A DNA stretch of 64,000 bases from Giardia intestinalis (GCA_000002435.2 CM018792.1); one strand, 5' to 3'. Shown: positions 13,081 through 35,160, counted from the stretch's first letter. Notes: a model not told the origin generated them from the sequence alone. Numbers and translations: made by a program.

Positions 13081-13867
13081 ATCTTTGATCGCTTTCATTG
13101 CTTGTAGAAGATGCTAATACGAAAAAGCGGATAGGATAAAGATTGCTCGGCCAAGTTGGTTGCTCATCTATGGTCAGCACCGTCAAACCTGCTTGAGAAC
13201 AGAGGTCCTTTATCATATCAAGGCTACGGATTAAATTGATGTCTTCTTTATCCAAGAAGAAACCATCGTTAATGATGCAATTTTCTTTCATGATGATTCT
13301 ACCGGTTGATGGAGTTAGAAGATGATCCTTGGCAAATTTGAGGAACCTCACGACATCGCGGTCCACTAAGTGACCAATCACCCACTGGAGAAACACAACA
13401 TCGTAATTAATTCCGCGAAATTGCTGTTGTAAGGCTTCTATATCCTGCAGCTCCAAGTTGTAACGCGCTCTGATACTATTTCTGGCAAAATTCGTTGTCG
13501 ATGCTTGGACAAACAGCTCACAGCCTTCGATCATGTCAACATGCTGAAAGACGGGCTTCAAGGCATAGTGAGATACACGGCCTATACCTCCTCCGCAGTC
13601 GAGACAGGTGTTCGTTTTGATGGCCTTGTCTGAAGCCAACTGTTTGAGTCTTAGTGTGGTCCACTCAACCTCATCCTTGTGAACATAGGAGAGCCCTCCA
13701 AGCATACCGTCAATGGTGGGCTCCACAAGGGACGAGTACCACGTGGAGCAGGAGCCATACCACGCTGAGGTGCCCATCATGTTGATAATCTGGCGGTACT
13801 CTAGCTCTTCGCGGTCAGAAGTCACACCAATCACGTTCCCAAAAGCATCTAAGGGCTCGTCAGTCAT
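13073..13867 (-). CDS. NTMT1: alpha N-terminal (X-P-K) protein methyltransferase, NTMT1/METTL11A family
   Basis: 'PTIDGMLGG' (NTMT1 'PTVDGMLGG'), SAM motif I 'CLDCGGGIGRVS', 'HVDMIEGCELFVQAS', and 'YDVVFLQWVIGHLVDRDVVRFL' (human '[22 protein letters not shown]'). Its 3' end overlaps the V-ATPase B stop by 8 nt (convergent). Confidence 0.85.
   Translation of the reverse strand: MTDEPLDAFGNVIGVTSDREELEYRQIINMMGTSAWYGSCSTWYSSLVEPTIDGMLGGLSYVHKDEVEWTTLRLKQLASDKAIKTNTCLDCGGGIGRVSHYALKPVFQHVDMIEGCELFVQASTTNFARNSIRARYNLELQDIEALQQQFRGINYDVVFLQWVIGHLVDRDVVRFLKFAKDHLLTPSTGRIIMKENCIINDGFFLDKEDINLIRSLDMIKDLCSQAGLTVLTIDEQPTWPSNLYPIRFFVLASSTSNESDQRFT
13076..13082 (+). terminator. putative Giardia-type polyadenylation signal AGTGAAT overlapping the stop codon of the V-ATPase B gene
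   Basis: 'aagactAAGTGAATc': it matches the AGTRAAY consensus and sits at the stop, as is typical for Giardia. Confidence 0.4.
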
Positions 13868-14411: not shown

Positions 14412-16788
14412 TTTTAAGAGGTAAGGATTTAACAGGCTTAGACTCAACAACTGCCTCCACTATGCCAGTTGTATTAAATTGTGGAAGTGGCCGCTTACTG
14501 ATCAGCTTAGATGCTGAAGTATTAGATCGTTGTATGTGCTCAATGGTATGAATTGGAGAGCGCGCAGAGAGGAAATTGTTACTTCGCCTCGGTGAAAGCC
14601 TTTCGTTTGGGCTATTTGGTAAGTGCCTAAAACTTTTCCCAGCAGACATGACACCATGGGACTTAGGTGCGCTGGAAGAGCTACGTATGAGAGGACGTCG
14701 AGGTGATGCTGAGGAAAGGAGAGCGCCTGAGGCTGCTCTTCTAGTAGATGGGGTATATGACGAAATAGTCCGTGCAGATGTCTTAGTTGGCCGAACTATT
14801 GAAGGCTCGTAAAGCATGCTGCTGTATTGAACTTTCTCAATGTGAATGTCACTTAAAGTATCATCAGAGTCTTCACAGTTGGGGTTTTCATAGTTGTATT
14901 CGTTATATGGTGTCCTTGCTTGCGAGAGAGCGTAGTTCTCAAAGATATTTTTCTTCAATACCCGGCGAACCTTTTGCATATATAGAATAGGATTGGTTCG
15001 GATTGATTCAGGGTAAAATGAATATGACTCACAGTCAGATATTTCACCAGAACACTGTATAGCTTTTGATTGGCAGGACGTAATGTCTGAGTGCGAACCT
15101 ACCCATCTTTTGGCAAATAGGTTTAGTGCTAAATCAATATTTTGCCACAGTTGCTCCGCTGTGAACAGGCCACCACTTAGTGTTTGAACAGCTTTATCGC
15201 TTACGTCAACTGACTGCCGGGAATGTGGACGTAGGCTGGTGGTAGGATCTTTGCTGACACCGCAACTTGTCATCAGAGGAGTCTTTCCTTCGCTTACAGT
15301 CTCACAAGCCACAGCAAAGGAAGAACTGTCCTCAGACTCGCAGGAAGAGAGTTTCTGATCACAAAGGTCATCCAAGGGCGTAGGAGCAGGCCTCTCAAAC
15401 AAGGTATCTTCCTTTACCGGTGAATGTATTCTCATAGAAAGCTCCCGCATGGTATGTGGTATCAGTGGAGAGAGAAGGGATGCACGGGTTAGAATATTAC
15501 TCGAAGGTGGAGGGTTGCTATGCAGTAAAGTAAACTCCCCAGCACTCCGGCAGTCAGGAACATAAGAGGATGCATCAAGCTGCAACGGAGGTACAGAGGA
15601 CCGTTCAAGAGGTTGCTCAAGGGATTGCCGATCTTCTACACATTGTGGGCTGCTATCAGGTTTGAAGCCCTTACTGGATGATAACGTAGCTAGGCCCATA
15701 TTGCTAGGCTTTATAGATTGTCGCTCAGTTTGCCACTTGCGTAAAATAGGACTAGAGAACTTGAAGATGGGTGGCACACACGATTGCCTTTTAGAATCCA
15801 GGAAACCGTCTCGCTCGTTTGCGCTGTGCTGAAGCTGTATCTCGGTCTCAGGTTTGCTCTCAGGTGACATTTTACCGAGATCTTGTACGCCACGAGGTGT
15901 GCTCATCAGTCCCAGTATCATGCTAGTGCTTCCGATAAAATCTTGGTCGGTGCTACAGGCAACGCTGTCGACGTGCTCGGAGCCAGCTGAAGTGGGATAA
16001 GGCCGGGTTGTGTGAACATCTGATGACTGCCTGGAGAAAGATCGTGTCAGGATACTGCGTGTTCGTGCCTTTGCTTCAGTTAGTTGATTGCTTAGGAGTT
16101 GCATCTTGCTCTTTAGAGCGGCAATGGTTACATTCTTGCTTTCGATTTCTCGCTGGAACTGCTCATTCTCCCTACCTTGTGCTAAAAGGGACGTATCTCT
16201 TAGTAACGTATAGTCAGCATCATAACTCTGAGAGGCTGTGTTCGATCTAGCATACCCACTGATAATATTGTTAAGCTCATGGATCTTCAACTGACTGCGC
16301 TTAGTCGACGTGGCCTTCTCTACTAGGATGGCCTGAAGAATTTCAGTTAGCTCGCCAATTCGGCGTGTCAGCGAGTAAATCTGTCTGCTCATTTTGTCAT
16401 GCTGGAGCTCCAGGTGGTCACGGACCTTAATGTACTCAAGAAGGTGGTCTCTGATCCCATCTTGCAATCGGGCCCGCATGTCTTTCATTCCGCGGTCCAT
16501 GATCATAAGCTCCGCTGTATCGATAGAGGCACTATAAATGGGGTATACATCTTTTGGTGCTTCGTGGTCTGTCTTTGGGTCGCAGGCCAACAGCTGCTCA
16601 AACATGACGTACAGCTTTCTGTTATGGATCTCGGCTCTTAAGTAGGAAAATGCTTGCCCGACGCTACTTGCTAGGGCCGTAGTCAACTGACCACTGATTC
16701 GCTCGGCCAGCATCTGAACAGAACTATCATGTGTCCTTGCACCTGCAGGAGACAAGGCCAGACCAAGCTCAGATGCTGTCAGCGGCAT
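14401..16788 (-). CDS. coiled-coil protein, paralogue 2 (short member, 795 aa) of the 4-member family
   Basis: N-terminal 'NRKLYVMFEQLLACDPKTDHEAPKDVYPIY' domain, then coiled coil, then a S/P-rich tail. ATG confirmed at 16788. Confidence 0.8.
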   Translation of the reverse strand: MPLTASELGLALSPAGARTHDSSVQMLAERISGQLTTALASSVGQAFSYLRAEIHNRKLYVMFEQLLACDPKTDHEAPKDVYPIYSASIDTAELMIMDRGMKDMRARLQDGIRDHLLEYIKVRDHLELQHDKMSRQIYSLTRRIGELTEILQAILVEKATSTKRSQLKIHELNNIISGYARSNTASQSYDADYTLLRDTSLLAQGRENEQFQREIESKNVTIAALKSKMQLLSNQLTEAKARTRSILTRSFSRQSSDVHTTRPYPTSAGSEHVDSVACSTDQDFIGSTSMILGLMSTPRGVQDLGKMSPESKPETEIQLQHSANERDGFLDSKRQSCVPPIFKFSSPILRKWQTERQSIKPSNMGLATLSSSKGFKPDSSPQCVEDRQSLEQPLERSSVPPLQLDASSYVPDCRSAGEFTLLHSNPPPSSNILTRASLLSPLIPHTMRELSMRIHSPVKEDTLFERPAPTPLDDLCDQKLSSCESEDSSSFAVACETVSEGKTPLMTSCGVSKDPTTSLRPHSRQSVDVSDKAVQTLSGGLFTAEQLWQNIDLALNLFAKRWVGSHSDITSCQSKAIQCSGEISDCESYSFYPESIRTNPILYMQKVRRVLKKNIFENYALSQARTPYNEYNYENPNCEDSDDTLSDIHIEKVQYSSMLYEPSIVRPTKTSARTISSYTPSTRRAASGALLSSASPRRPLIRSSSSAPKSHGVMSAGKSFRHLPNSPNERLSPRRSNNFLSARSPIHTIEHIQRSNTSASKLISKRPLPQFNTTGIVEAVVESKPVKSLPLKNGQ

Positions 16789-17435: not shown

Positions 17436-17530
17436 TTGGGTCTTTATCTTTGCTTCATCTTTGGCATTTATTTTCAATTGCTAATGGCCAGATTTTGAAA
17501 AGCCACAAAGGATTTGCTCGGCTTCCCTGC

Positions 17531-20500
17531 ATGGAAGATTCCGCCACTTTCCAGACAGGAATAGGCTACGACCAAGACACCCTGTTTGGCGGAGAAAGTA
17601 CTAGTCAGCCTAGTGGGGTGGAATTCTTCATTCGTTCATCGGTCTCTCCAGCGAATCCAATACGGCTCGTCGACGCAGGGGACATTTCTGCAGATGAAAG
17701 GCGCGCATCCATCTATGCGTATCTCGACAAGGACTTTCGGGAGCACACCAGCAATCTGGTTACCTCTCTCAATGGGTATATGACACAAATGATATCAGGG
17801 CTCTTTCAGGAGCTACGGACAGATATACAGAGCCGAAAGCTATACGTTCTCTTTGAACAAGCCCTGGGGTGTGACCCCATGACAGACCATCTTGCTGCCA
17901 AAGATGTCCTTCCAATATATGCACCCTACATCGACAAAGCGGAAAAAACGTTTCGCCGGTTAACTCTTCATAAGTTCAAGCATGACATAGAGACGGAGTT
18001 TTGTGCCGCCATAATATCCGAATTGCGCGCGCGCCTCAAGATAGAAGACACTAATATGAACATCTCCACTGAGCTCGAAAAACTGCGGCTTCACTGCAAG
18101 TCTCTCTTAGACGAGAATATTCGTATCTCGAGCCAATGGCAACAGGAGCGTGAAAAGCTACTTCAACAGATAGGCACATTATCGGAACAACTGGTGCAAA
18201 AGAAGAGGGCAGGCAATATCTATAAGCCAGACTTTATGGCATCTGGGTCATCGTGGGATGCAGAGGCCCCTGTACCTGATTTCACCAGGGTCCCATCCAA
18301 GGGTGTGAAGGAGCTCCTTGAGCTGGAGACGAAGCTAGCTAATGAAGCAGCAGAGAAGGAGCGGCTTAAGATGGAACTGGATGCTACCTCTATGAAGTAC
18401 CAGCACCTCCTAGAACAATGCAAACAGATACCAGAACTGCAGAATCAAATTGACGAACTTAACCAGCGCATAGAGGAACTTCTTCGCCGCATAGCAGAGC
18501 AGGATGATACGATTGTAGAACAACAAAAGGAAATAGCTGACCTCTTGGACCAGTTGGCATCCCTTAAGAAAGCTTACGATGGATTAGATAGCGATCACCT
18601 TGCGCTGCAAAACACAGTGGATACTCTTAATATGGAGAAAGGAGAAAGTGCAGCGGAGAATGAGAAGCTTAAAAGGCAAATAGCAGACCTTCTCAAGCGA
18701 GTAGCTGCAGCAGAAGCAGAGAGGGACAGATACAAGCAACAGATCACAAAGGGGGATTCTGACCGCAATATTTCCCTAGTAGATATCAATAATAACACAG
18801 TCAAAAGCGCCCGGCTTCCCGGAAGCCCTGACGACGCTGGGTTTGACAACAGGACCCTGCTTTCTGTTAAGCAGCTTCTCTATGAGCTTACTGGATTCAA
18901 TCTGCTAGGTCATCAAGATGGCTTCACAGAGGCTTATGTTGGCGACAAAGGTTTGCCACAAGACGGGGAATCGCGAACACGTTTTTCATGTCCTACTCCA
19001 GGCAAGGAATCAAAGCCGACCCTGCCCGATATGGGCCCTCGAACAGGATCCAGAGCCCTATCCAGGAAAGGAACACCCAAGTCTACAGCTATGAAGGAGG
19101 ACCCTGCATCAATAAGGGTACGGCTGCAGGGTCAAAGGCCAAGCGTTGGAAGCATCGAAGCTGCTCTAGTAGCTGCTACTACCTCTAGCCCATGGAATGC
19201 AGCTAGAAGCATCTCCGGTAGGAGATCTTCCAAGAATGTCGTTAGCGAACGAATAGACACGGATGGCGTCTCTAGGAATACAGAGGTCACACCGTGTAGA
19301 GGCTCCAGGTATAAATTTATAGACACAGGATTAAATCCAGCGTATTTCAACCCGGGAGTAGAGAACCCTTATGATAATGTAGTGTCCGGCTTTTACAAGG
19401 ATCGAGACATCTGTTTATCGAAGCTGACAGACAGATTAGGCATTGAACACGCTCAATTAAGAACTGTCCGTGATCTAGTTGGTCGCTTCTTCTCCGGAGA
19501 CCCTGTCTATGCAGAGCTTTTACGGTTACTTGCCGAAGGAAGTATCTCTCCTGACCTAGTAGCCAAAATCCTTGCAGGCATGCACACAGGGGAACTTCAG
19601 GCATTTTTAGAAGACCTTCTGAAAGTGGATGAGAATGGAAATCTTGTCCGCAATGGAGATAAACAGTACATTGCAGGAAGGGGTGTGGTCGAGGATGAAC
19701 CCTTGAGCAGTGAAGCGGCGAGCTTGTCTGACTATACTCAAAGCAAGAAGAGCCGTGGAGAAAGATACTTACGGAACGGCGCACAGAGACAGCCTGATGA
19801 CCAAGGTCCCAGAGAGGATTATGACGGAGTTCCTTTAGCATTACCGCTCCCCAGGGGATCCGATAACTATAATAAACTTAAGCCTGACATCGATAGTCAC
19901 AGAAGTGTGGCCTCTAATCTAGATGAGCTCTCTGCAGGCGGTACCGAAACATTGCCCAGTGGCCTGCTAGGGTTCTGGAAGCAAACGCAGACTATATTGG
20001 GTATGGACGACATGGAAGAGCTCATGGCTCTTCGGGAACTCATGTTGGACAAAGGAACGAACACCGACGCGTCTAAGAAAAATAAAAAGGGTGGATACTC
20101 GAGCGTTAGCCGATCTTCTTCAACACGGAATCTATATGGAAGTGACGGACATGTTAGTAAAGATGATGGATCAACGGACCCTAGCAGTGCACGGGGCATT
20201 CCTCCAGATATTCTCAAGGATAAGCAGATAGCAACATACATAGATGAGCGGCTGCAAATAGAGCGGGAACGCGTTCGCGATGAAGTGACAGCAGAGCAAG
20301 AATTGGATAATATTGAGAAGATAAAGGTTGCCGTGGAAGTGGCTGCAAATACAATGGACTTTTGGTGCCAGGTCAACTATGATGATAGTGAATCCGATGA
20401 CTATGGCACTAAGAAGGGGGGAGCAGTCATGCAAAAGGTGCAGAACGCCATAGATCGATTTTCAAAGCCAGGAAAGCCGGGATTTCAAATTAAGTACGAT

Positions 20501-23500
20501 AGAACGCCCAGGGATTGGACCGTAAAGGGTGTCTTTGCCCGTCTCTATCAAAATGCAGAAGAAATCCGAGCACGACTCAATATGAAACGGGCGGAGCATC
20601 AGAAGCGAGAGGCTCTTCTTTATGCAAAGTATCTTCGTAGTCAGAATTCCATTCTAAAGGACGACGGTCTTCTGGTGGCAGCGTCGGAGTATGATAACGT
20701 GTCCAAACGATACGCCCAAGAGGCACAAAAGTGGAACGACGAGGTAAAGAAGTTATCTGCATACGACAGTAAGCAAGAAGATTTTAGTAAGACCCCTCAG
20801 CTTTCTGGCTCTAACGTTAGGGGAGAAGATGCGCTTATGAAGACAGGAAAAATGACCACTGCGGACCTAATCGAGGAGGTTAATTCACGCTCATCTAAAG
20901 AGCACTTGATCAGGATCACTTCTGTATCAACTAAGTCGCCAGACATGGACGATATAATAGTTAACACGTCTGGCATCAGGAGTGCACCACGAGGTCTCAT
21001 GGGGAAGCAGCGGGACAGGATAACAACGGTATTTGACATGGAGGGGTCATCGATTCGGGGAACACCTAGAAGTTCTATGACTGGCTCTTCGTACAGAAAC
21101 TTAAACAACACACCGAGAGAAAGCATCAGTGGCTCCCAAGATGCATATGTGACGGGAACACCAGGTGCTCCCAAGAATATGTTTAGTACTCTCAATACTG
21201 GTGGAAGGAAGCTACCAGGGATGCAGCTTACCATAAAGGATCACTCTACACACCACTCACTTAAGCAGCAAGGACCTGGCCAGATAGCATATGGAGCAGA
21301 ATTAGTGACTATGAACTTATCAAATGGTTATAGTGGCTCTAAGGGTAGCAAGCCCATTCTGATAGCATCCGGAAACAGTGGAAACCCGCTTCCTTATATC
21401 AGTAAAAAGAGCAACACAGACACGCCAGGATCCACAGTCGTGGATGCTTTCCACGAATCCGATATTAAGCTGACTCAAAGTATTGATAACTCTAACGTAT
21501 CTATCGCACCAGTAAGTAGTAGTACAAGCTGCGAGCCAAGCACAAACTTATTAAAATCTGGCAAAATTCTACAACCGCTTACTTCAACTCCTGAGCACAT
21601 CCGACCGTTCTCTGGAAAAGGTTTTGGGAGTGGGAAAATAGTTTATGACCAGTACGGAAAACCCATGCCAGCACAAGAGATACAAGATATTATCGCATAC
21701 AAGTACATATTCGGGAACGCCTCTATGCTTAAGGTTAAAGATATGGGGCGACGCCTTCTCGTCTCTGTGCCAGATAGCTCGCAATTGATAGAGGTATCTA
21801 AGGAGACGCTGCGCACGATCAAGGAGAATGTAGACAAGCTGGTGGAATACTTTAAGGTGCCAGGGATATCAAATTTGTATGGAAATGATGTCGTGGGACG
21901 CGCAACTAGCGCAAAAAGAGATTCCAATTCTGCTAAGTTAAATACTCTACCTAGAGATCCGCCTATTGATGATAGACTGGATTGTCCAGCTGTTTCTATC
22001 AATAGAGATGCTTTATCGACTACGGATGAATTAGTGCAGGAAGAGAAGAGAGCTCTGCTAGAGTTTGACAGACCCGACTTATCTGCTATCCCTGGTACAC
22101 CGATTGCTCTTCAGACAGACGTAACCAGGTCTGCATCTGTATTAAATATTGAGCCAGACCCACAGCAATCCTTTACTGATAAGGAGAACGTTGATACTGA
22201 TTTTCTTATTCCTTCAACGATAGCCTCGAGCGCGATGAAGAAAGACAGGTACGGGGTTGAAAAAGAGTTAGAAGATAACTTGGCGACAGTGCTCAGAAAA
22301 AGCGTAGAGGCGCTAGAAAGTTTCACGCCTCCACTGCGATTATCAGAAGACCAAGATTTAAGCAAGCAACGCAAAGGCAAAGAGCTAGTCTTATCTGATC
22401 TTGATCTTCAAATAGCCAGTATTAAGGATCCGTATGCAGAAAAGATAAACCATCTAGACGAGGAAGGAAGCATCACTCCGAATAGCCTAGAGTATGGACT
22501 CAGTGTCGTTGAGGTGACACCAAACACAGAATTTAACCAGCAACGTGAAGAAACTATCACCCTTAACAGCTTTCGAGGCAAACATAGCGATCGCACTAAG
22601 TATCGGAGAGAGAGTAGCAACTGCATATCCGATGATGGCTCAATAGACCTCACCAGTCATAGCAGCGGTCAAAATCAAATAGACGATCGTTCTACTCATT
22701 TCGAGGATCTAGTCGAAAACGCACTTGAAGATCCAACAAAACAAGCGTCTCAAATAAGAGTTAGCACCACTGTAATAGCATCAACAGAATCACTCAACGC
22801 TAATCAGGTGACTGCACCAGAACCCAGTTCAGCATATACACAAGGTAATACCATACGGAGAAGCATCGTTAGGGGAATAGAAGTAGCAGACAGTGCCGTA
22901 TCAACACACTCAACAAGGACCAACACCCCATCTCAGGGTATGCTATCATTAGATGAACAGATTTCTCTACGACTGGCCGATCAAAGCCGTACAGCGACCG
23001 CTATTAACATAGAGTCCCCGCTTTCTGGCTATGAGAGGGACAGTATCAATCGGATGGACCCCGGTGCTATTCCAGAGTTTCTGACTGGAACAACATCCAT
23101 ACATATAGGTGGACGTCGGCTCTCAGATGACGACCGCCATAGTTTAGAAGGTACTCTTAGCATTCCTGGACCGGGTGAATTAGACCGATATGATACTGCC
23201 CATTCGGGATATGAACACCATAGGCTGCCATCATATAATCCACAGGATTCCAATTTTGTGGCTTCTTCTTTACATATGAAGGCAAAGCCAGGCGCTATTA
23301 ACCATATAAATACTTTTATCCAATTTGAGAATCCACAGGCTCGTGCAGGAACACAACACGCCGTTACAACTTCATTAAATAGCGACGATCCGCACGCTTT
23401 TGGGGATACCAGCGAGAAAACGACTTCATCTCCGAATGTGGCAGGAGCTGTGCGTCATACGGTTGTCCAAAAGCAGTCATCTACTTCCAAGCATGGTTTT

Positions 23501-23809
23501 GTACCAAACAACTATCTTATTGGAAAGATACTGCCGCAGGAGCCTTTTATTAAAGGCCCGTCAGGACCCATTAATATGGGAGAACCAGGTCTTTTAGCCA
23601 GCGCAAGTGAGTCGCTAGTTATCAGAAAACGCTCAGCCGAAATCTCTGGAGCGAAGGAACCGACCACAAGCGGCGGTCAAAATGCAGATTCCGACACGCC
23701 AAGTCAATCGAATATCTTTTCTCAGCCAAAGCTGTACATGAGTAGATTGCATCAAGATCTTAAAAAGGCTCGCGATGCTGATGGAAGTTCGCTATTTGGT
23801 AAGAAATAA
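17531..23809 (+). CDS. giant coiled-coil protein, paralogue 3 (2092 aa)
   Basis: 'SRKLYVLFEQALGCDPMTDHLAAKDVLPIY' domain, coiled coil, and 'NIYKPDF'. ORF-track start 17450 is TTG; the first ATG is 17531 ('MEDSATF'). It shares a 95-bp divergent spacer with the c'' gene. Confidence 0.75.
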   Translation: MEDSATFQTGIGYDQDTLFGGESTSQPSGVEFFIRSSVSPANPIRLVDAGDISADERRASIYAYLDKDFREHTSNLVTSLNGYMTQMISGLFQELRTDIQSRKLYVLFEQALGCDPMTDHLAAKDVLPIYAPYIDKAEKTFRRLTLHKFKHDIETEFCAAIISELRARLKIEDTNMNISTELEKLRLHCKSLLDENIRISSQWQQEREKLLQQIGTLSEQLVQKKRAGNIYKPDFMASGSSWDAEAPVPDFTRVPSKGVKELLELETKLANEAAEKERLKMELDATSMKYQHLLEQCKQIPELQNQIDELNQRIEELLRRIAEQDDTIVEQQKEIADLLDQLASLKKAYDGLDSDHLALQNTVDTLNMEKGESAAENEKLKRQIADLLKRVAAAEAERDRYKQQITKGDSDRNISLVDINNNTVKSARLPGSPDDAGFDNRTLLSVKQLLYELTGFNLLGHQDGFTEAYVGDKGLPQDGESRTRFSCPTPGKESKPTLPDMGPRTGSRALSRKGTPKSTAMKEDPASIRVRLQGQRPSVGSIEAALVAATTSSPWNAARSISGRRSSKNVVSERIDTDGVSRNTEVTPCRGSRYKFIDTGLNPAYFNPGVENPYDNVVSGFYKDRDICLSKLTDRLGIEHAQLRTVRDLVGRFFSGDPVYAELLRLLAEGSISPDLVAKILAGMHTGELQAFLEDLLKVDENGNLVRNGDKQYIAGRGVVEDEPLSSEAASLSDYTQSKKSRGERYLRNGAQRQPDDQGPREDYDGVPLALPLPRGSDNYNKLKPDIDSHRSVASNLDELSAGGTETLPSGLLGFWKQTQTILGMDDMEELMALRELMLDKGTNTDASKKNKKGGYSSVSRSSSTRNLYGSDGHVSKDDGSTDPSSARGIPPDILKDKQIATYIDERLQIERERVRDEVTAEQELDNIEKIKVAVEVAANTMDFWCQVNYDDSESDDYGTKKGGAVMQKVQNAIDRFSKPGKPGFQIKYDRTPRDWTVKGVFARLYQNAEEIRARLNMKRAEHQKREALLYAKYLRSQNSILKDDGLLVAASEYDNVSKRYAQEAQKWNDEVKKLSAYDSKQEDFSKTPQLSGSNVRGEDALMKTGKMTTADLIEEVNSRSSKEHLIRITSVSTKSPDMDDIIVNTSGIRSAPRGLMGKQRDRITTVFDMEGSSIRGTPRSSMTGSSYRNLNNTPRESISGSQDAYVTGTPGAPKNMFSTLNTGGRKLPGMQLTIKDHSTHHSLKQQGPGQIAYGAELVTMNLSNGYSGSKGSKPILIASGNSGNPLPYISKKSNTDTPGSTVVDAFHESDIKLTQSIDNSNVSIAPVSSSTSCEPSTNLLKSGKILQPLTSTPEHIRPFSGKGFGSGKIVYDQYGKPMPAQEIQDIIAYKYIFGNASMLKVKDMGRRLLVSVPDSSQLIEVSKETLRTIKENVDKLVEYFKVPGISNLYGNDVVGRATSAKRDSNSAKLNTLPRDPPIDDRLDCPAVSINRDALSTTDELVQEEKRALLEFDRPDLSAIPGTPIALQTDVTRSASVLNIEPDPQQSFTDKENVDTDFLIPSTIASSAMKKDRYGVEKELEDNLATVLRKSVEALESFTPPLRLSEDQDLSKQRKGKELVLSDLDLQIASIKDPYAEKINHLDEEGSITPNSLEYGLSVVEVTPNTEFNQQREETITLNSFRGKHSDRTKYRRESSNCISDDGSIDLTSHSSGQNQIDDRSTHFEDLVENALEDPTKQASQIRVSTTVIASTESLNANQVTAPEPSSAYTQGNTIRRSIVRGIEVADSAVSTHSTRTNTPSQGMLSLDEQISLRLADQSRTATAINIESPLSGYERDSINRMDPGAIPEFLTGTTSIHIGGRRLSDDDRHSLEGTLSIPGPGELDRYDTAHSGYEHHRLPSYNPQDSNFVASSLHMKAKPGAINHINTFIQFENPQARAGTQHAVTTSLNSDDPHAFGDTSEKTTSSPNVAGAVRHTVVQKQSSTSKHGFVPNNYLIGKILPQEPFIKGPSGPINMGEPGLLASASESLVIRKRSAEISGAKEPTTSGGQNADSDTPSQSNIFSQPKLYMSRLHQDLKKARDADGSSLFGKK

Positions 23810-26552: not shown

Positions 26553-29500
26553 ATGATGGCAACAGATCCTCTGGGCCTTGACATGGCCGAACTGGGGATT
26601 GTCATTAACCACGGCGACTTGCAAGATGTGCATTCAGGTTGCCTTAAGTATACCCCAGAGGCCTTGGCCCTCGTGAACGAACTGACCGCTAACATTGCCA
26701 CCATCCTCACAGACTCCATCACAGCGGTATTTACTACACTCAAAGATCGCATACACGAACGTCCGCTCTATGTCCTTTTCGAGCCTCAACTAGGTTGTGA
26801 TCCTCTTACGGATCATCAGACCCCAAAAGATGTATATCCAGTATTCAGTGAAGCAATCTCATCGGCAGAAAAAAGGCTGAGCGAGACATCTATTGTAATG
26901 ATAGCGGATGAGCTGCGAGCAAAGATTGTCACCATGTTGAATTTAGAAGTTAGTAAGACCAACGCCCTTAAAGCACAGGCAGAGGATGCCCTTGGAGAGC
27001 TAGCTACTCTGAAAGCTAAGCTACTCATGAAGGACAAGTTCATTCAGCAGATCATGCAGTCCAAATCCGAAGACCATAGCAAGTTCATATCAGAAATAAC
27101 CGTTCTCAGAGAGCAAGCCTTTATGAAGCGGCGCTTTGGAGATAGGTACAAGCCAGATAATATTGACAAAGCAGCAGATGATGGCCAGCAGCAAGGCCTC
27201 GGCGGATCCCTTTTGGGGAGCACAGGAGAGTTCGCTGTAGGCCAAGGAAACCAGGCTAACAAGCTGATTCGTGACCAGCTAGCAGCTACAGTAGCAGAGA
27301 ATAAAGAGCTGAAGCTTAAGCTGGAGGCAACAGGGCTTGCACACAAAAAAGTAGAGGAGCTGGAGGAGGAGTGCACCGCACTAAGGCTCAACATTCAAAA
27401 CTTGGAGTCATCTCACACAGAAACAATAGCCAAACTTGAAAGCAGTCTCAAGGAAAAGAATTTGCTCATATCAACCTATCAGGACAATGAACGGGCACTC
27501 AATACATCTGTTCAAGAGCTTACAAAGCAACTGCGCTCGTTGGAGAAAAGGCGGCCCACTTCTTCAGATATTACTTCTCGTACAGACACAGATTTATTTA
27601 GAGAAAATACTGAGCTAAAATCTAGAGTCTTTGAACTGCAAGAGCAGCTCATGACTAATCAGCTAGAGAAAAAGCAGGACCCTACAGAAGATGCGAGCCT
27701 AGCAGAGACTCTTTCCAATCTACAGAAGGAGCTTCAAGAGAAAACTGCTGAGGCAAGCCTTTATAGGCAAAAGCTAGAAGAGGCTGGCCTTTTGAACGCA
27801 CCGGTTGACGCATTTATCAAGCTCGCTGATCATAATACGGCTGTGGCTGCATTCACCTCTCAGATTGACGAGCTTGAGGCTCAGAACCAGGCTCTCGTAG
27901 AGCTCTCAGAAAAACTTCAACGTCAAGTAGATCAGCTTATAGAAAATGAAGCCGCCGAGATAAATAATGTCCTTGAGGCTAACGAAATCTTACACAAGCA
28001 GAAGCTGAAAAACGCAGTTGAGGCTGCCGTTTGTATCGACAGTTTCAACGAGTCTATTCAGGCAGCCAAGCGAGCTATCACAAACTTTGATGACTTCGGG
28101 TGTCAGGTCCCAGATAAGCGCGCTCGTAAAAGTGCTCTACGATCTGGCGAAGGGGATGACCTGGATGTGCAGGATGATGAGGGCTGTAAAGAAGACGCTG
28201 AAGCATCTCGCATTCGTCGCGCCATTGATGCAGCTAGGAAAATATATGCCAGCCGTCTTCCCGCGATGAACGAGCCTACATTGTCCTATGACGTGAGCAG
28301 TGTTGACGAGGTCTTTAAACAGTTATTCGACACGGCAAAGACAGCCAAGACGCAGCTCATGAAAAAGCATCACGAGACGCTGAAAAATGAAGCGCAAACA
28401 CTGATGAGAAACTTAAACCTTCATGATCGCATTGCCCGTACAATTTCACATTATACTAACTTTGTTGACCAACCAGCTAAGGACCCGTTGAAACTACTGT
28501 CTAAAGAGCAGCTACGCGATGTGCTCTGCGAGAATATAGACGTAGGCCCCTTTGACGACTCGTCTCCTGAACAGGATGAGATGTTAGCTAGACTGCCTGA
28601 TGCATCACATGAGATGCAAGACGAAGCTTCGAATAGAGACTCAGCTGTAAAGGAACCTCATGACTCGCCTCCTGCAAAACCTGATGGTCCCGCTCCTAGA
28701 AGTCGTAAGCGCCGTGCCTCTCCTTCTAAGGTTAGGGGCGGCAGATCTACCCTTTCCACACCAATCTCTTCCACTACAAGACCAGCAACCCGAAAGAGCG
28801 GAACTACACTGAGCGGTACAACAACCTCACGTGCTTCTGAGTTAGAAGAGCTCGACGGCGAAAAGGACTTTTTTCGTGCCTCAGTCCCAGACAGCCCCGT
28901 CAGAGAGACCTTCAGCGTACGAACCCCAGCATCTCGAGGTATAGAGAGCGATAGAGATTCAGACGACCAGGTGGCTTATGCGCTAGCAGACAACGGTAAG
29001 CGTATAGCGCCCATGAAACACGTTCGTGTACCACGTTTGAAAAGTAGTGGACGAGGCCCAAGGCTATTAATTCGACTATTAAAAGACAAACTCACTGGAG
29101 AAATCCGCGATGAACTGGGAAGGCTGGTATCTTCAGAAAACCTATATATGTACGGGTATTGCCTGGACATTAGAGGCGACCTAGTCTACTATGGTGATTG
29201 CAGTGTCAATAAAAAGGCTTCAGATGACCCAGATACCATTGTACGGAGATTTCTGGCCGGTGACGAAGGTGAGTTGCTACTGCCTAACGGACAGCGCATT
29301 TTCCGAGAGGATGCACTGCGCTTTGGATATAAGGGTCCTGCACGTAATGGAACTTACATTTTCATTGGCCAACCTCTTGACCTATATGATCAGGTTATGC
29401 GACTATCACCGGATGGTGTTTCTGCTATGGTGACTAAGATCTTAGGACAAGATATAGAATATGACGATATCATTGCTGACTTTACCTTCAAGCTGGATTT

Positions 29501-32500
29501 AGACGAAGTGACCCAAAAGCCATACGTCTGTATCGACACTGATGCCACCTCTTTACAAGACTCTACACAGGATGCATTCCATGTATTTACGCACGCAAGA
29601 GCAACTGAGTTTCTCCATAGGGTTGATCCAGAAAGCCTGAAGATTCCAGAGGAAGATGCTTTCAAGATCGGCATTTTGCCTGATGCCGGCGGGGTATATC
29701 GTTATGCACGACCAGCGCTCCACCTATCACAAGCAGACGATTTGCTAGTAACGGATCCACAGGGAAATGAAATTAAGGTCGAAGATGCCCTTGAAGCAGG
29801 ATATGCAGGGCCGTTCGGTTCACAACAGGAGTATTACTATTTCTCCCCAGCTCTTCCTGGAGAAACAAGGGCTTGTGAGGTAATTTCCAATGGTTCAAAA
29901 TTACGCATAATCACCAACAATGACGAAAACACTGCTTATGAAGTTGCTGTAGCTGATGCATACAAATATGGATTTCTTCCTGCGCTTAATGGTACATACC
30001 ACTACGCAGGAGATCTGCCATATCTTAGAGAGCTCGATACAGAATCTAACGTTCTATATGACCTCTTGGATAAGCCTGTTAACCGTGAAGACGCAGAACA
30101 ACACGGATACTTGCGTCATAGCGATGGGAAGTACTATTACATAGGCTTATCTAACCTACCTCAGAAACAAAGTCCTCCATCAACCGTACGGCTATCATCT
30201 TCTATCGACATTTGCGACTCTTCGTTTGATAGTCAATTGGAAAATGACGGTATTAACATCGCAAATGCTGACATAACATTGCTATACGATAAGTATATTG
30301 ACGTATTCATAGAAAAGGATACAGGATACGTCGTTGACAATAAGGCTATGCTTAAAGAGTATGGGTACCTGATCGATAATACAAACACTCCTCATTTTGT
30401 AGGGATAAACAATTTGGGAGAGGTTCTTCCACGTGATGCAGATTTGGATGCTATAGACCAGTCGAAAACCATAATCACCGGTTATAATAACAAAATATAT
30501 GTTTATGATCAGAAAAACATTGATACATATTATGAAAATAACGTTGCAATTGTACCTAAGAAGATTGATATTATAAAACTTCAAAAGCGGCTTGAAACCA
30601 TTAATGATCCAAACCAAGTGAGAAAGCTGGCGGAGCATATGCAGCGTTTGGACAAGCGGCAGTTGGAAGCTTCTCAGCCTCCTGCTCGTGACATCAGCTC
30701 TTGTAGCAGTGAAAAGGTGAGCATACTGATTGATGACGGCATTGGAAAAAGCACCATTCTAAACGTTAAAAGTAACGAGCTACAGAATGTTGCATCTAGT
30801 ACCTCACCAAAAGTAGAAGCCACTATCACTCAACGTGAACATAGACAGCCAAAGGATGTAGCTAATGATCTCATTGTAGAGGAACTCGTAAATACACAAG
30901 CGCAACTTCATGACCATTTGCCGGCGTGTGAACTAACTGGAGAAATAAGCAGCAGTGTAGTGCATGTTGAACCAACTGGTCATGCTTCAAGAAATCCGAT
31001 CGATACCCTTGATAATTGTACAATCATCGATAATACTTCTTTAGGAGCTGGGTTGGGCCATGCATCGACAGTACGCAAGGTTACCACTCTCTGCAGCCAT
31101 AACATTGATCGAGAGCTTTTGGGACACCAGGGGGGCTATTTCTACTCTCCTGGTCATGCCGTCTTTAAACGACACGGACCAGGATTAGTTGTTACAACTT
31201 ACGGTTCTGTCGATGACACCTTTGTACATGTGAAAAGCCCAAACTATAGGACTCATATGTTGACTCCGTCCAGAAAGGGCCGCATTGTTATTCAGAACAT
31301 CATTAAGCCGTCACCTAATACCAGTATACGGCCATTGTTCGATCGAGAGGCTGGAATTGTCTTCGATGAGCAAACAAATGAGATTTTGGGCCACGTCAAC
31401 GAAACAACTGGTGACATCGAAGACACCACTGGGCGCACAATTGGACATAGCGAGCTCAGATCTCGAACTATTAAGTATGTTAGCACAGAGAGCTCTCTAA
31501 AGCAGGCGTCAATACATAGGCTGCGCTCGACAACTGTGGCTTCTACTACCACTTCACTACAACGTAGCCGCTCCCACGATCCTCGGCATTCCGTAGAACT
31601 AGGACAAGAGAACTATATCTTTGGTGAATTTGTAGAAACACCCATGCGTGTTGTAAGCACTAAAGCATACATAGCAATGAATACACCCACACAGATGAAG
31701 GATCCAAGCGTTCCCCTGCTTTCTTCAAGCGTAACAGGGCTATCTTCTCGCCGAAATCTTATCGATTCTAAGTCTGGAAGGACAACGCAGGGCCTCACTA
31801 AATCAAGCATGGTGCTGGTAACTCTTCACGATCCTGATGCTCCTCTGGACTTGGATCCACACGCCATTACAGCGTTCCAAGTCAATACGCATACGGAGAC
31901 TGTCCTTCGTGGAGGTTCTGCTCCAGCAAGGGGGTCCTTCGGACTGTCAGATACTGGGTTCAAAGAGGACAGTATTGTCTCTATGCACGATGGGATGTTT
32001 CCTGGTATTGAGGATCGTACCCAGTTGGGGGTGACTCCGACTGAGCTCGTACGAGCCACGTCCCATCGTGCAATTGGACGCAGTCCATCAATAATACCTG
32101 GAATGCATAACCCTGCACCTCCATCGCTTAATACGTTATACAGAGAAGGAAAGACTCTGAATGCTCTGTCTAACGCTTTGCCAGTTACCCCTCAGAAGCC
32201 CCCTGATTCCGCCCTCCATCGTGCCTCTTCAAAACGTGATATGTCTATTGGTTATCCTATATGCCAAAGGTCTGTACGCCGAGCGCAATCAATGCGATAT
32301 ATGACAGGTCACATGCTTCCATCGATGATACTTCCACATGAGCTGCTTCGGCGTCCCTATTACAAGGACGCAACATCTAAATGGATTCCTTACACTCAAG
32401 TCACGCTGGTGCCAGACGATTCAAAGATGCTTTCAGAGTCACACTCTGCTCCTCTTAGCATCTTGCAAAGCCTTGCCTATCGTACACTGCAGCACGGTGT

Positions 32501-33314
32501 CCTGTCTACAAAGCCCCTTCGTCCACATACGACAAACGATGCATCAGAAGCTACCTCCACTACAAGCCGTGTAGCCCTAGCTTCTGATGATGAAGATTTA
32601 ATTGAAGCAGATATAGGGTGTAGCAAGCCACCTCAAGTGCTTCCCTCAATGCGATGCCTAAACAAGTTTGTCGCTATGAAAGACTCAACAACCACGCACA
32701 TAAAGGGTAGTGAAGGTCGGGCTTTGAATCCGCATAACAAAGACACAGGCACAGTATTGAGAGGGGCCAGCAACCCAGTTGTTTCCGAACGAATATCTTA
32801 CAATCTTTCCCAAGAAGCCCGTGCAAAGTCGTCTTGTTTGGCTAAAGAATCTGAATATCAGTTTGTGCAGGTGGGCTCTCTGCCGCCCTCTAGCCTCCCA
32901 GCCACATTTCCACTGGTAACTAGCGCGATGGAAAGCACTGAAGCGCTTTCATCTCTTTGTCAGAAACACGAACGCAGCCCAATGCATGTGCATTCACTTA
33001 CTAAAACTGAAAAACCTAAGGAGACTCCGCTTTGCGACGTTGCTCCACCTTCGCCTGAGACAAAACAGTGTGATAATGTCCACCGGCCTAGAAACCTAGT
33101 TACATCGCGCAGGTTGCTGTCAGCTCAGCTAAAAGGATCTAGTTCTCAACAGGCCCGCCAACCCCGCATAATACAGATCATTCAGAACGATCTAAACACA
33201 TCTGCATCGTCTAGAACACACGGCCTTCAAGCGCACTCCGCCTCAGATGCTGCAAAAAAACTGGAAACAAGTGGCCTTGCTATCAATACCTCTCCTCGCA
33301 GACGTTGCCGGTAA
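26553..33314 (+). CDS. giant coiled-coil protein, paralogue 4 (2253 aa) with internal Y/G-rich repeats
   Basis: 'ERPLYVLFEPQLGCDPLTDHQTPKDVYPVF' domain, ~400 aa of coiled coil, 'DRYKPDN', six 'EDAxxxGYxGP..nGtYyYxG..LP' repeats, and a ~1000-aa S/T-rich tail. Confidence 0.8.
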   Translation: MMATDPLGLDMAELGIVINHGDLQDVHSGCLKYTPEALALVNELTANIATILTDSITAVFTTLKDRIHERPLYVLFEPQLGCDPLTDHQTPKDVYPVFSEAISSAEKRLSETSIVMIADELRAKIVTMLNLEVSKTNALKAQAEDALGELATLKAKLLMKDKFIQQIMQSKSEDHSKFISEITVLREQAFMKRRFGDRYKPDNIDKAADDGQQQGLGGSLLGSTGEFAVGQGNQANKLIRDQLAATVAENKELKLKLEATGLAHKKVEELEEECTALRLNIQNLESSHTETIAKLESSLKEKNLLISTYQDNERALNTSVQELTKQLRSLEKRRPTSSDITSRTDTDLFRENTELKSRVFELQEQLMTNQLEKKQDPTEDASLAETLSNLQKELQEKTAEASLYRQKLEEAGLLNAPVDAFIKLADHNTAVAAFTSQIDELEAQNQALVELSEKLQRQVDQLIENEAAEINNVLEANEILHKQKLKNAVEAAVCIDSFNESIQAAKRAITNFDDFGCQVPDKRARKSALRSGEGDDLDVQDDEGCKEDAEASRIRRAIDAARKIYASRLPAMNEPTLSYDVSSVDEVFKQLFDTAKTAKTQLMKKHHETLKNEAQTLMRNLNLHDRIARTISHYTNFVDQPAKDPLKLLSKEQLRDVLCENIDVGPFDDSSPEQDEMLARLPDASHEMQDEASNRDSAVKEPHDSPPAKPDGPAPRSRKRRASPSKVRGGRSTLSTPISSTTRPATRKSGTTLSGTTTSRASELEELDGEKDFFRASVPDSPVRETFSVRTPASRGIESDRDSDDQVAYALADNGKRIAPMKHVRVPRLKSSGRGPRLLIRLLKDKLTGEIRDELGRLVSSENLYMYGYCLDIRGDLVYYGDCSVNKKASDDPDTIVRRFLAGDEGELLLPNGQRIFREDALRFGYKGPARNGTYIFIGQPLDLYDQVMRLSPDGVSAMVTKILGQDIEYDDIIADFTFKLDLDEVTQKPYVCIDTDATSLQDSTQDAFHVFTHARATEFLHRVDPESLKIPEEDAFKIGILPDAGGVYRYARPALHLSQADDLLVTDPQGNEIKVEDALEAGYAGPFGSQQEYYYFSPALPGETRACEVISNGSKLRIITNNDENTAYEVAVADAYKYGFLPALNGTYHYAGDLPYLRELDTESNVLYDLLDKPVNREDAEQHGYLRHSDGKYYYIGLSNLPQKQSPPSTVRLSSSIDICDSSFDSQLENDGINIANADITLLYDKYIDVFIEKDTGYVVDNKAMLKEYGYLIDNTNTPHFVGINNLGEVLPRDADLDAIDQSKTIITGYNNKIYVYDQKNIDTYYENNVAIVPKKIDIIKLQKRLETINDPNQVRKLAEHMQRLDKRQLEASQPPARDISSCSSEKVSILIDDGIGKSTILNVKSNELQNVASSTSPKVEATITQREHRQPKDVANDLIVEELVNTQAQLHDHLPACELTGEISSSVVHVEPTGHASRNPIDTLDNCTIIDNTSLGAGLGHASTVRKVTTLCSHNIDRELLGHQGGYFYSPGHAVFKRHGPGLVVTTYGSVDDTFVHVKSPNYRTHMLTPSRKGRIVIQNIIKPSPNTSIRPLFDREAGIVFDEQTNEILGHVNETTGDIEDTTGRTIGHSELRSRTIKYVSTESSLKQASIHRLRSTTVASTTTSLQRSRSHDPRHSVELGQENYIFGEFVETPMRVVSTKAYIAMNTPTQMKDPSVPLLSSSVTGLSSRRNLIDSKSGRTTQGLTKSSMVLVTLHDPDAPLDLDPHAITAFQVNTHTETVLRGGSAPARGSFGLSDTGFKEDSIVSMHDGMFPGIEDRTQLGVTPTELVRATSHRAIGRSPSIIPGMHNPAPPSLNTLYREGKTLNALSNALPVTPQKPPDSALHRASSKRDMSIGYPICQRSVRRAQSMRYMTGHMLPSMILPHELLRRPYYKDATSKWIPYTQVTLVPDDSKMLSESHSAPLSILQSLAYRTLQHGVLSTKPLRPHTTNDASEATSTTSRVALASDDEDLIEADIGCSKPPQVLPSMRCLNKFVAMKDSTTTHIKGSEGRALNPHNKDTGTVLRGASNPVVSERISYNLSQEARAKSSCLAKESEYQFVQVGSLPPSSLPATFPLVTSAMESTEALSSLCQKHERSPMHVHSLTKTEKPKETPLCDVAPPSPETKQCDNVHRPRNLVTSRRLLSAQLKGSSSQQARQPRIIQIIQNDLNTSASSRTHGLQAHSASDAAKKLETSGLAINTSPRRRCR
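29280..30430 (+). repeat. six divergent protein-level repeats (~35-40 aa each) inside paralogue 4; weak resemblance to plakin/plectin repeats
   Basis: The six units are 'LLPNGQRIFREDALRFGYKGPARNGTYIFIGQPLD', 'EEDAFKIGILPDAGGVYRYARPALHL', 'VTDPQGNEIKVEDALEAGYAGPFGSQQEYYYFSPALPGE', 'VADAYKYGFLPALNGTYHYAGDLPYL', 'VNREDAEQHGYLRHSDGKYYYIGLSNLP' and 'AMLKEYGYLIDNTNTPHFVGINNLGEVLP'. Confidence 0.5.
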
Positions 33315-33718: not shown

Positions 33719-34552
33719 TCAAGCATTCTCGAGATGCATATTAGGATCCATTGAGTTAATTCCTACGGGGAGACACATCTGCCCTCCATAGCCCGCAGGG
33801 GGGAAGCATGGCACGCATGCGAATGCAACGGGCGACCCGAGGAGACCCTGGCCCGTCTGAAGCGGGAGGACGCCGGGCCCAGGAACGACCCCGGGCGGGA
33901 GGGCGAGGACGAGGCACCCCGGCGCGTGCGGGGGCAGAAGCGCAGAGACCGCGCCCGGGGCCACAAAGACCGGCCCCCCGACGGGCGGCACCAGCGGAGG
34001 CGTGGCGCAACCAAGAACGCAGGGGGGCGGGGGAGAGGCCGTCACAGGAGATGCCTCCTCCTCCTGCTTGGCCGCCCTCGGGCCGTATGTGCGGCGCGGC
34101 AGCACCACCCCGTGCTCCTCCAGGGCGGCGCGGACGTCCTGGGTGCGGAGCGCGTTGTTGTACGTCATCCGCAGCTCCTGGCGCGGATACTTCGCCCCGA
34201 AGCGCTCGTGGACCCTGCGGTAGAAGTCCGGGCCCAGGATGCTCCGGTCCCTGACCCCGGCGATGATCATCGCCTTGATGGCCCTGCGGTCCTCGCCGGT
34301 CATCTTCACGTTGAGGATGCTCCGCGAGTGCGTCTCGCGGTACCAGTGGTAGATCCTGCTCCGGTCCTCGGACAGGGCGCGGGCGATCTTCTTCCAGTCG
34401 ATGGCCGTCCGGAGCACGTGCCGGTGGAGGAGCAGCGGCCGCCGCGCGAGGCTCTCGGCCGTCTCCCCCAGCCGCCGGGCAGCGACGACCTGCTTCGCGA
34501 GCTCGAGCAGAACGGAGGCGCGCGTCTCCGCCGTCATTGCCCCAGAGCCCAT
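33719..34552 (-). CDS. GC-rich (about 95% GC3) gene for a 277-aa protein with a Myb/SANT-like N-terminus and a P/G/V-rich (elastin-like) C-terminal tail; possibly of foreign or mobile origin
   Basis: The coding frame is clear from extreme third-position GC ('ctg ctc gag ctc gcg aag cag gtc gtc...'). 'DWKKIARALSEDRSRIYHWYRETH' shows W-x17-W-x2-Y Myb-like spacing. The tail reads 'PPPPCVLGCATPPLVPPVGGPVFVAPGAV...PPGVVPGPGVLPL'. ATG at 34552. Confidence 0.6.
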   Translation of the reverse strand: MGSGAMTAETRASVLLELAKQVVAARRLGETAESLARRPLLLHRHVLRTAIDWKKIARALSEDRSRIYHWYRETHSRSILNVKMTGEDRRAIKAMIIAGVRDRSILGPDFYRRVHERFGAKYPRQELRMTYNNALRTQDVRAALEEHGVVLPRRTYGPRAAKQEEEASPVTASPPPPCVLGCATPPLVPPVGGPVFVAPGAVSALLPPHAPGCLVLALPPGVVPGPGVLPLQTGQGLLGSPVAFACVPCFPPAGYGGQMCLPVGINSMDPNMHLENA

Positions 34553-35160
34553 CCGATAGAAGCGGCGATAAAACTAAAAACAGACCAACGAATAATGTGA
34601 AATTAAATATGTACAGGCCTTGCACAAAAGCTTTAGCGGGTGTTTGTTGCCTGCCTGCCCCGGTCCGTCGGGCGAGCAGGGCGCCCTCACCCGGGCCATC
34701 GCCGCAGTACGAGTTGGCTTAGGCCGCCACACAGAACAGACTGCTTTGCACACGGCGGCGCCGGGGCTGATGTATTGATCGGAGGTTTTTGGTATTGCCG
34801 GGGATCCCCGCCCTCGGCCGCCAGGGAGAGCCGCGCCCTGCGCAGCCCCGGTTTGTCTGCAGATGCCCAGAGCTCTACGGAGGCGGGCAGGCTGGGGCCG
34901 TCCCCTTCGTTCGGGGCATCGCCGACGACGAGCTGCTGCCTGCGGCCTGCGGGGTCTTCCGCTCTGAGAGGGGCAACCGAGTGTCGTGGGCCGCAGCGCT
35001 CTGCAAGGCCTGCACACGACCAGGGGCTGCCAAGTTTTTTGAGCAGCTGGCTCTGACGCAGATTCTGCGGACGCCTGCTGCCGGCCCGGTCTACAGGGGC
35101 GCCCGCGTGTCTACTGTGACGACTTCCCTCATAGTGCAAAGAGTCCCTGCTTAGCCCTTT
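33760..35160. other. compositional island: ~1.4 kb at ~70% GC embedded in ~49% GC sequence. It contains the CDS above plus ~600 bp of GC-rich sequence with no ATG-initiated ORF.
   Basis: There are abrupt shifts at both borders. Overlapping ORFs appear in five frames, which is a signature of high GC. All the +strand and other -strand ORFs here start at TTG/GTG in the ORF track. It is flanked by ORF-free AT-rich spacers at 33315-33718 and 35161-35842. Confidence 0.7.

Follow-up and report, generated by a model that had tools for sequence, protein, structure and literature searches.

In a 64,000-nucleotide stretch of Giardia intestinalis DNA (GCA_000002435.2 CM018792.1; here called the window), the gene GL50803_21897 encodes a giant coiled-coil protein that carries an array of short Tyr- and Gly-rich repeat units. 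The repeat units are genuine and conserved. We propose with moderate confidence that they represent seven or eight small folded modules with cores of approximately 31-33 amino acids (aa), amid a giant cytosolic coiled-coil protein, and that they make up a folded docking or spacer array. Pfam does not contain the module, the searchable literature yielded no mention of it, and it is of an ordinary kind: a lineage-specific structural repeat of a hypothetical protein.

The window has a G+C content of 45-52% and contains long open reading frames (ORFs) without introns on both strands. ORF 26553-33314(+) is an exact match to GL50803_0021897 (XP_001705673, UniProt A8BPU2) of Giardia intestinalis WB clone C6, hereafter WB. 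An original prediction, made from the DNA, had placed six copies of a unit of approximately 35-40 aa in positions 29280-30430. This interval is in frame with the ORF and corresponds to aa 909-1292; the six units listed at that time begin at aa 906, 1021, 1064, 1123, 1166 and 1248. The host gene, the units and the double units into which they can be grouped are as follows.

26553..33314, plus strand: host gene GL50803_21897, 2,253 aa, 'hypothetical protein' (ORF list, exact sequence look-up, identity profile versus the orthologues).
29103..29198, plus strand: unit 0, aa 851-882, IRDELGRLVSSENLYMYGYCLDIRGDLVYYGD, an additional copy that precedes the start given originally (sixth-best peak in the whole-protein scan).
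29277..29375, plus strand: unit 1, aa 909-941, LLPNGQRIFREDALRFGYKGPARNGTYIFIGQP (shuffle test; leave-one-out E = 1.5e-4).
29622..29717, plus strand: unit 2, aa 1024-1055, VDPESLKIPEEDAFKIGILPDAGGVYRYARPA (shuffle test and scan; 52% identity in the distant orthologue P0032; helix and hairpin in the AlphaFold2 model).
29751..29849, plus strand: unit 3, aa 1067-1099, TDPQGNEIKVEDALEAGYAGPFGSQQEYYYFSP (shuffle test, AlphaFold2, hhalign register).
29931..30023, plus strand: unit 4, aa 1127-1157, TAYEVAVADAYKYGFLPALNGTYHYAGDLPY (leave-one-out E = 4e-9; shuffle test and scan).
30060..30152, plus strand: unit 5, aa 1170-1200, DLLDKPVNREDAEQHGYLRHSDGKYYYIGLS (leave-one-out E = 1.3e-4; shuffle test and scan).
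30312..30407, plus strand: unit 6, aa 1254-1285, EKDTGYVVDNKAMLKEYGYLIDNTNTPHFVGI, a divergent copy (resembles units 4 and 5 only; 42% identity in P0032, in register).
30459..30542, plus strand: unit 7, aa 1303-1330, QSKTIITGYNNKIYVYDQKNIDTYYENN, a degenerate eighth copy (orthologue and double-unit alignments).
29088-29396, plus strand: double unit A, aa 846-948.
29607..29870, plus strand: double unit B, aa 1019-1106, units 2 and 3 with an ordered 11-aa linker; the segment modelled.
29913-30176, plus strand: double unit C, aa 1121-1208.
30300-30557, plus strand: double unit D, aa 1250-1335.

Pairs of units were compared by their Smith-Waterman scores against composition-preserving shuffles. 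For units 1-5, all ten pairs reached p <= 0.033 and most of them p < 0.002; unit 6 was similar to units 4 and 5 alone. When all 40-mers of the 2,253-aa protein were scanned against units 1-5, these five units gave the top five peaks, followed by a copy that had not been listed before (approximately aa 844-885, here unit 0) and by unit 6. Hidden Markov models (HMMs) were also built by leaving out one unit at a time, together with its orthologous copies, and were scored on all ORFs of the window. The omitted unit was the best non-training match in six of seven cases, and three units (1, 4 and 5, with the E values listed above) were individually significant. An alignment of 21 copies from three species revealed the pattern x-x-v-D-p-x-G-x-x-V-x-x-E-D-A-x-x-x-G-Y-L-x(3-6)-G-x-Y-x-Y-x-G in several copies; one Gly is invariant, and the D, G, V, D-A, Y, G, Y and Y columns are conserved. 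The profile of these 21 units finds seven domains at 37-48 bits in the WB protein, whereas all other ORFs of the window remain at or below 0.3 bits. Unit 0 scores 37 bits, being itself a training member of this profile, and is 50% identical in P0032. Related single units had also been claimed in two paralogues of the host protein encoded in the window, but the corresponding stretches reach only -2.5 bits (paralogue 1, ~7240-7330) and -4.7 bits (paralogue 3, ~21650-21730) against the same profile, and this claim does not hold. The original observation is confirmed in part. The six copies themselves are real and are kept in the orthologues, units 1-5 being similar beyond shuffles and unit 6 weak on its own; two further copies, one upstream and a degenerate one downstream, can be added.

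A simpler explanation would be that no folded repeat exists, and that a low-complexity composition rich in Tyr, Gly and Asp, or a chance pattern picked by eye, imitates one. The block is Y/G-rich, as had been described (Tyr 7.6% versus 2.8% in the whole protein, Gly 7.1% versus 5.1%). The isoelectric point (pI) of the array is 4.41, in contrast to 10.5 in the preceding segment, and the net charge is negative in six of its eight units (unit 1 is +3 and unit 7 is 0). Pairwise identities between units amount to merely 11-36%, which would fit this explanation, as would the absence of a DNA-level tandem repeat in the region; the latter also indicates that the copies are old. However, the shuffles keep the composition, and yet the mean pair score of the set is 15 standard deviations higher (z = 15). 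Repeat detection, which had been suggested as a check, gives a positive answer by shuffles and scan: the units are the top peaks of the whole-protein scan, and the same columns (D, G, a hydrophobic position, E-D-A, the invariant G, Y and G-x-Y-x-Y-x-G) recur in 21 copies from three species.

The conservation of the array between species points in the same direction. A single-sequence phmmer search with aa 841-1420 as query, exhaustive over 1.84 billion cluster representatives at E <= 0.001, returned two matches only, both of them full-length orthologues from Giardia-like assemblies. Together with the failure of the plakin tests described below, this bears out the initial preference for a lineage-specific repeat over a plakin repeat. 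The orthologue P0031 (2,247 aa, run SRR17450160) is 71% identical and is encoded on a syntenic contig; P0032 (2,204 aa, run SRR31929897) is 31% identical and its neighbours are singletons. In a three-way alignment all units, including unit 0 and unit 6, are found at the same positions in P0031 and P0032. For six of the seven WB units, the best match in P0032 is the positional counterpart, which argues that the array is older than the split of the lineages. Unit 7 is a case with weak evidence (21% identity to P0032), in which the first hairpin and the helix are deleted in WB, but both are kept in the distant orthologue. The linkers are free to vary in length and sequence; P0032, for instance, lacks a 31-aa stretch that precedes unit 2.

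Identity to P0032 is 39% in the unit cores, as compared to 22% in the linkers. Saturation of synonymous sites in the comparison of WB with P0031 (proportion of synonymous differences, pS, ~0.7-0.8) leaves only the nonsynonymous divergence (dN) comparable between regions; it amounts to 0.125 in the units, 0.21 in the linkers, 0.233 in the whole protein and 0.337 in the tail. The unit cores, with the lowest dN, are the most constrained part of GL50803_21897, and this speaks against a merely compositional origin. The repeat family of GL50803_21897 and its orthologues is recognizable by the consensus in several copies and by position-by-position conservation under purifying selection. Judged from these comparisons, the duplications would precede the split of G. 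intestinalis and the distant Giardia-like species, and each copy appears to have been under purifying selection since.

Two observations on the orthologues and on the remainder of the protein can be added. The P0032 gene (L005 10001-16615) is very G+C-rich: the 10-15 kb segment of its contig has a G+C content of 0.69, the adjacent 5-10 kb segment of 0.60 and most of the contig of 0.52-0.54. Its product is rich in Ala, Gly and Arg, and its immediate neighbours encode a kinesin, a flavodoxin-like protein and a nucleoside transporter, unlike the WB window. In addition, the fast-evolving C-terminal tail of GL50803_21897 contains a conserved island at aa 1596-1640 (window 31338-31472), FDREAGIVFDEQTNEILGHVNETTGDIEDTTGRTIGH, which is kept in the distant orthologue as VFDAETGKVFDRESGREIGSVHEMTGVLTDASGVVLGNV. 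This island looks like three or four short, hairpin-like mini-repeats of the type D/N-x-x-T/S-G-x-[IV].

Structure prediction had been proposed as a further check. Single-sequence AlphaFold of aa 880-1309 gave a predicted local distance difference test score (pLDDT) of 34.7, too low for a fold search and in line with the explanation that there is no fold; the low-confidence model nevertheless displays a recurring strand-strand-helix-strand-strand (E-E-H-E-E) order. AlphaFold2 (AF2) was then supplied with a 12-row double-unit alignment as multiple sequence alignment (MSA) for aa 1019-1106, and the model reached a pLDDT of 75.7 and a predicted template modelling score (pTM) of 0.59, with 67 of 88 residues at or above a pLDDT of 70. 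In this model, unit 3 (pLDDT 85-92) consists of a strand LVT (residues 47-49 in model numbering), a turn DPQGN, a strand EIK (55-57), a helix VEDALE (58-63), a Gly, a strand YAGPF (66-70), a turn and a strand EYYY (75-78). The linker between the two units is an ordered strand and has the highest confidence of the model (pLDDT 92). The spacing is 43 aa both from unit 2 to unit 3 and from unit 4 to unit 5, and the four double units of ~85 aa align with each other. A fold search with the AF2 model matched no solved fold. The lineage-specific beta-hairpin repeat that had originally been favoured is thus right as to lineage, but it is not a pure hairpin: the prediction is a hairpin, a short helix and a second hairpin, with the units in pairs. 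Considering this model along with the shuffles and the pattern of constraint, we regard the absence of a folded repeat as very improbable.

The order of the predicted elements recalls another small domain. The GYF domain has a beta-beta-alpha-beta-beta fold with a G-Y-F motif after the helix and binds proline-rich peptides, and proline-rich segments are plentiful in Giardia coiled-coil proteins. The unit could therefore be a miniature GYF-type domain, and the array a multivalent reader of such segments. It shares with the GYF domain of CD2BP2 the strand-strand-helix-strand-strand order and the Gly-aromatic motif that closes the helix, since a G-[YF]-hydrophobic motif directly follows the helix in the AF2 model. 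A local likeness also exists between 'GYFPDGVYCRKL' of CD2BP2 (verified as 1gyf_A) and 'GILPDAGGVYRYARP' of unit 2. However, the CD2BP2 GYF domain reaches -1.7 bits against the unit HMM, a value within the distribution for shuffled sequences, an hhalign comparison covers 5 columns at a probability of 0.4%, no Pfam GYF match was obtained and no GYF structure appeared among the fold matches. The GYF signature is W-x-Y-x(6-11)-G-P-F-x4-M-x2-W-x3-G-Y-F; the units have neither this W-x-Y...GPF...W pattern nor a conserved Trp, they are ~20 aa shorter than a GYF domain, and they are tandemly repeated, which GYF domains are not. With no detectable sequence relationship, a GYF-like mini-domain was rejected as very improbable.

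Other aromatic repeats were also considered. RHS/YD, choline-binding, MORN, WW and similar repeats gave no Pfam match, and on inspection their motif order differs. The aromatic hairpin repeats of bacterial surface proteins (choline-/cell-wall-binding, RHS/YD) are likewise Tyr/Gly-rich hairpins with alternating aromatic residues (G-x-Y-x-Y), but they have no helix, are extracellular and are either ~20 aa long (cell-wall-binding) or built on a contiguous Y-x-Y-D-x-x-G (YD). Their host proteins also differ from GL50803_21897, in which a signal sequence is not obvious and a long coiled coil is present.

The comparison that had attracted attention originally was a loose resemblance to the plakin/plectin repeat. 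The plakin repeat is a 38-aa motif comprising an 11-residue hairpin and an antiparallel helix pair, and ~4.5 such repeats pack as a globular domain that binds intermediate filaments through a basic groove (PMC4782060). If the Giardia units were extremely diverged true plakin repeats, GL50803_21897 would be a plakin-like cytolinker that binds a filament system. In both cases short repeated modules are found within a giant coiled-coil protein, and the likeness extends over the first ~22 residues, D-P-x-x-G-x-x-[ILV]-x-x-x-E-A-x-x-x-G-[LY], a hairpin followed by a helix. Unit 3 is the copy that looks closest to the plakin repeat. For a direct comparison, a plakin profile was made from 14 authentic desmoplakin (5dzz) and envoplakin (4qmd) repeats, taken from a PDB search. 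Using hhalign, columns 4-25 of the Giardia profile align with plakin columns 11-33, in the register proposed originally and over the hairpin and first helix only (22 columns; probability 3.8%, P = 0.011). The aligned positions are D-P, the turn G, the hydrophobic strand, the E-A helix start and G plus a hydrophobic residue, and the shared motif is D-P-x-G-x-x-[IV]-x-x-E-[DA]-A-x-x-x-G-[YL]. Only 2 of 300 column-shuffled profiles reached the observed score; this null contains one odd outlier (score 133), and only the fraction that reaches the observed score is quoted for it. The loose resemblance is therefore confirmed as a genuine short motif, in which a hairpin is followed by an acidic helix start and a Gly-hydrophobic helix end. 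As a sign of homology it is much too weak.

The remaining tests all speak against membership in the plakin family (PF00681; desmoplakin, envoplakin, plectin). With the double-unit profile, the hhalign probability falls to 1.9%. Neither the whole protein nor the 383-aa block matched Pfam Plectin at E <= 1, and the six units, scanned singly, gave no match at E <= 10; in these scans, HMMER filters may hide matches above ~0.1. PDB profile searches with the 6- and 21-copy profiles retrieved no plakin chain and nothing at all at E <= 10. The comparisons with Pfam and the structural databases that had been suggested for plakin thus failed at the level of family, PDB sequence and solved fold. Where plakin has its second helix, the latter half of the Giardia unit forms a Tyr-rich hairpin: AF2 predicts a hairpin, one helix of 6-7 residues and a second hairpin (plakin structure from PMC4782060). 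The units follow each other at 43 aa within pairs and at irregular distances between them, not as the compact 4.5 x 38 aa of contiguous repeats in one globule with the fold of 1LM5, 1LM7 and 4QMD. The block is acidic (pI 4.4), which by this charge proxy is at odds with the basic groove used by plakin domains (PMC4782060). Plakin homology is unsupported: the remainder of the unit does not agree, nor do its spacing, its predicted fold or its charge. The unit, known from Giardia-like genomes only, has no significant plakin match in sequence, profile or fold. We consider true plakin repeats in this protein exceedingly unlikely, and the array presumably does not work as a plakin domain that grips intermediate filaments via a basic groove. 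We know of no intermediate filaments in Giardia.

A more far-reaching idea would be that the hairpin-helix half is a true but extremely remote relative of plakin. The module would then be pre-animal and rebuilt in Giardia, with the Tyr hairpin replacing the second helix, and would dock the coiled-coil protein to another filament system. If true, a plakin-type cytolinker module existed before animals; we see hardly any chance of this. More likely, though still tentative, is a milder version, in which the double unit represents a small alpha/beta fold that is new and occurs in Giardia alone.

The folded docking or spacer array that we favour has to be viewed in the context of its host. GL50803_21897 consists of an N-terminal family domain, a coiled coil, a basic S/T/P-rich segment, the repeat array and a long, ill-conserved tail. 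Pfam detected neither an SMC domain nor any other match above threshold in the protein; the annotation of the gene in another isolate as 'chromosome segregation protein SMC' most likely reflects the coiled coil alone. The segment next to the array is as follows.

28620..29087, plus strand: basic S/T/P-rich low-complexity segment, aa 690-845, directly upstream of the array, pI 10.5 (composition).

Identity to P0032 is lowest within this segment (12% at aa 701-800). Many giant coiled-coil proteins of Giardia are thought to form its unusual cytoskeleton. A very basic segment, an acidic array and a long coiled coil together are a layout typical of cytoskeletal scaffold proteins. Each module would comprise a beta-hairpin (D-P-x-G-x-x-[IV]), a short helix (E-D-A-x-x-x), the invariant G with an aromatic residue (G-Y/F) and a Tyr-rich hairpin (G-x-Y-x-Y-x-G). 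Turn Gly and Asp-Pro, helix-capping acids and alternating Tyr/Phe account for most of the conserved positions, so a miniature hydrophobic core is likelier than a ligand site. Two modules and an ordered linker of 11-12 aa would combine into a domain of ~85 aa, a pairing suggested by the moderate-confidence model, and four such double units would be strung on flexible, ill-conserved linkers of variable length. In its protein context, the acidic aromatic array would probably serve as a folded docking or spacer platform for protein-protein contacts in the Giardia cytoskeleton.

Several points weigh against this proposal. In the leave-one-out test, units 0, 2, 3 and 6 were individually non-significant, the first three being found only weakly and unit 6 not being recovered, as would be expected if there were no repeat. 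The predicted fold rests on one shallow MSA that mixes orthologous and paralogous double units, and two of the five AF2 models reached a pLDDT of only 55-58. The restriction to the Giardia lineage is based on one single-sequence phmmer search. Finally, searches of the literature and supplements for GL50803_21897 and GL50803_12217, among them a localisation atlas of 608 proteins, the ventral-disc proteome and the interactome of actin, found no localisation, interaction or expression data for these proteins. Approximately 40% of the Giardia proteome is without assigned function (PMC13322205).

The second of these genes, ORF 4974-11471 (GL50803_0012217), is one of four paralogues in the window (4974-11471+, 14401-16788-, 17450-23809+ and 26553-33314+). 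A BLAST comparison among the window ORFs limits their likeness to the N-terminal 130-400 aa; what they share is the N-terminal domain together with the beginning of the coiled coil. The shared domain has ~70 aa with 15 invariant positions, R-x-x-Y...E...L-x-C-x-P-x-x-D-H-x-x-x-K-D-x-x-P, and is followed by the coiled coil. Its copies are located as follows.

26706..26918, plus strand: N-terminal family domain of GL50803_21897, aa 52-122, ...RPLYVLFEPQLGCDPLTDHQTPKDVYPVF... (BLAST among window ORFs; alignment with 15 invariant columns).
26706-26918, 5120-5330, ~17840-18050 and ~16480-16690: the four copies of the N-terminal domain, the last on the minus strand.

No Pfam family corresponds to the domain, and a PDB search returned noise, with the best match at E = 0.023 to a CdiA toxin fragment. 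The four genes look like a Giardia-specific family of giant coiled-coil proteins whose members are clustered within 30 kb. The mechanically called ORF of paralogue 3 begins at a TTG (window 17450-17530), and the first in-frame ATG (MEDSATFQ...) follows 27 codons further on; this ATG is more likely to be the eukaryotic start. Between the giant paralogues, 11587-13080 encodes a V/A-type ATPase alpha/beta-family subunit and 13073-13867, on the opposite strand, an N-terminal proline (NTM1-type) methyltransferase; with stop codons included, the ends of these two ORFs share 8 nt.

Downstream of GL50803_21897, positions 33719-35139 form a local G+C peak (0.565 versus ~0.47 around it) with overlapping ORFs of 224-289 aa on both strands; a 288-aa minus-strand ORF in this segment had no Pfam match. 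The region 35843-56581 contains six mutually similar ankyrin-repeat ORFs (35843-38374-, 38471-40828-, 40871-42160-, 42111-45335-, 45477-47909- and 49479-51737+) and, at 52049-56581-, an ankyrin protein of 1,510 aa that has a RING finger at its C terminus. These proteins probably belong to the large ankyrin ('21.1') family of Giardia.

The general importance of the array is modest unless a function is found, as it is a further lineage-specific repeat of a hypothetical protein. The tempting annotation as a plakin outside animals is removed as unsupported. The defined module provides domain boundaries for truncation, tagging, pull-down and structural work on this giant Giardia protein, and a profile with which other diplomonads can be searched.

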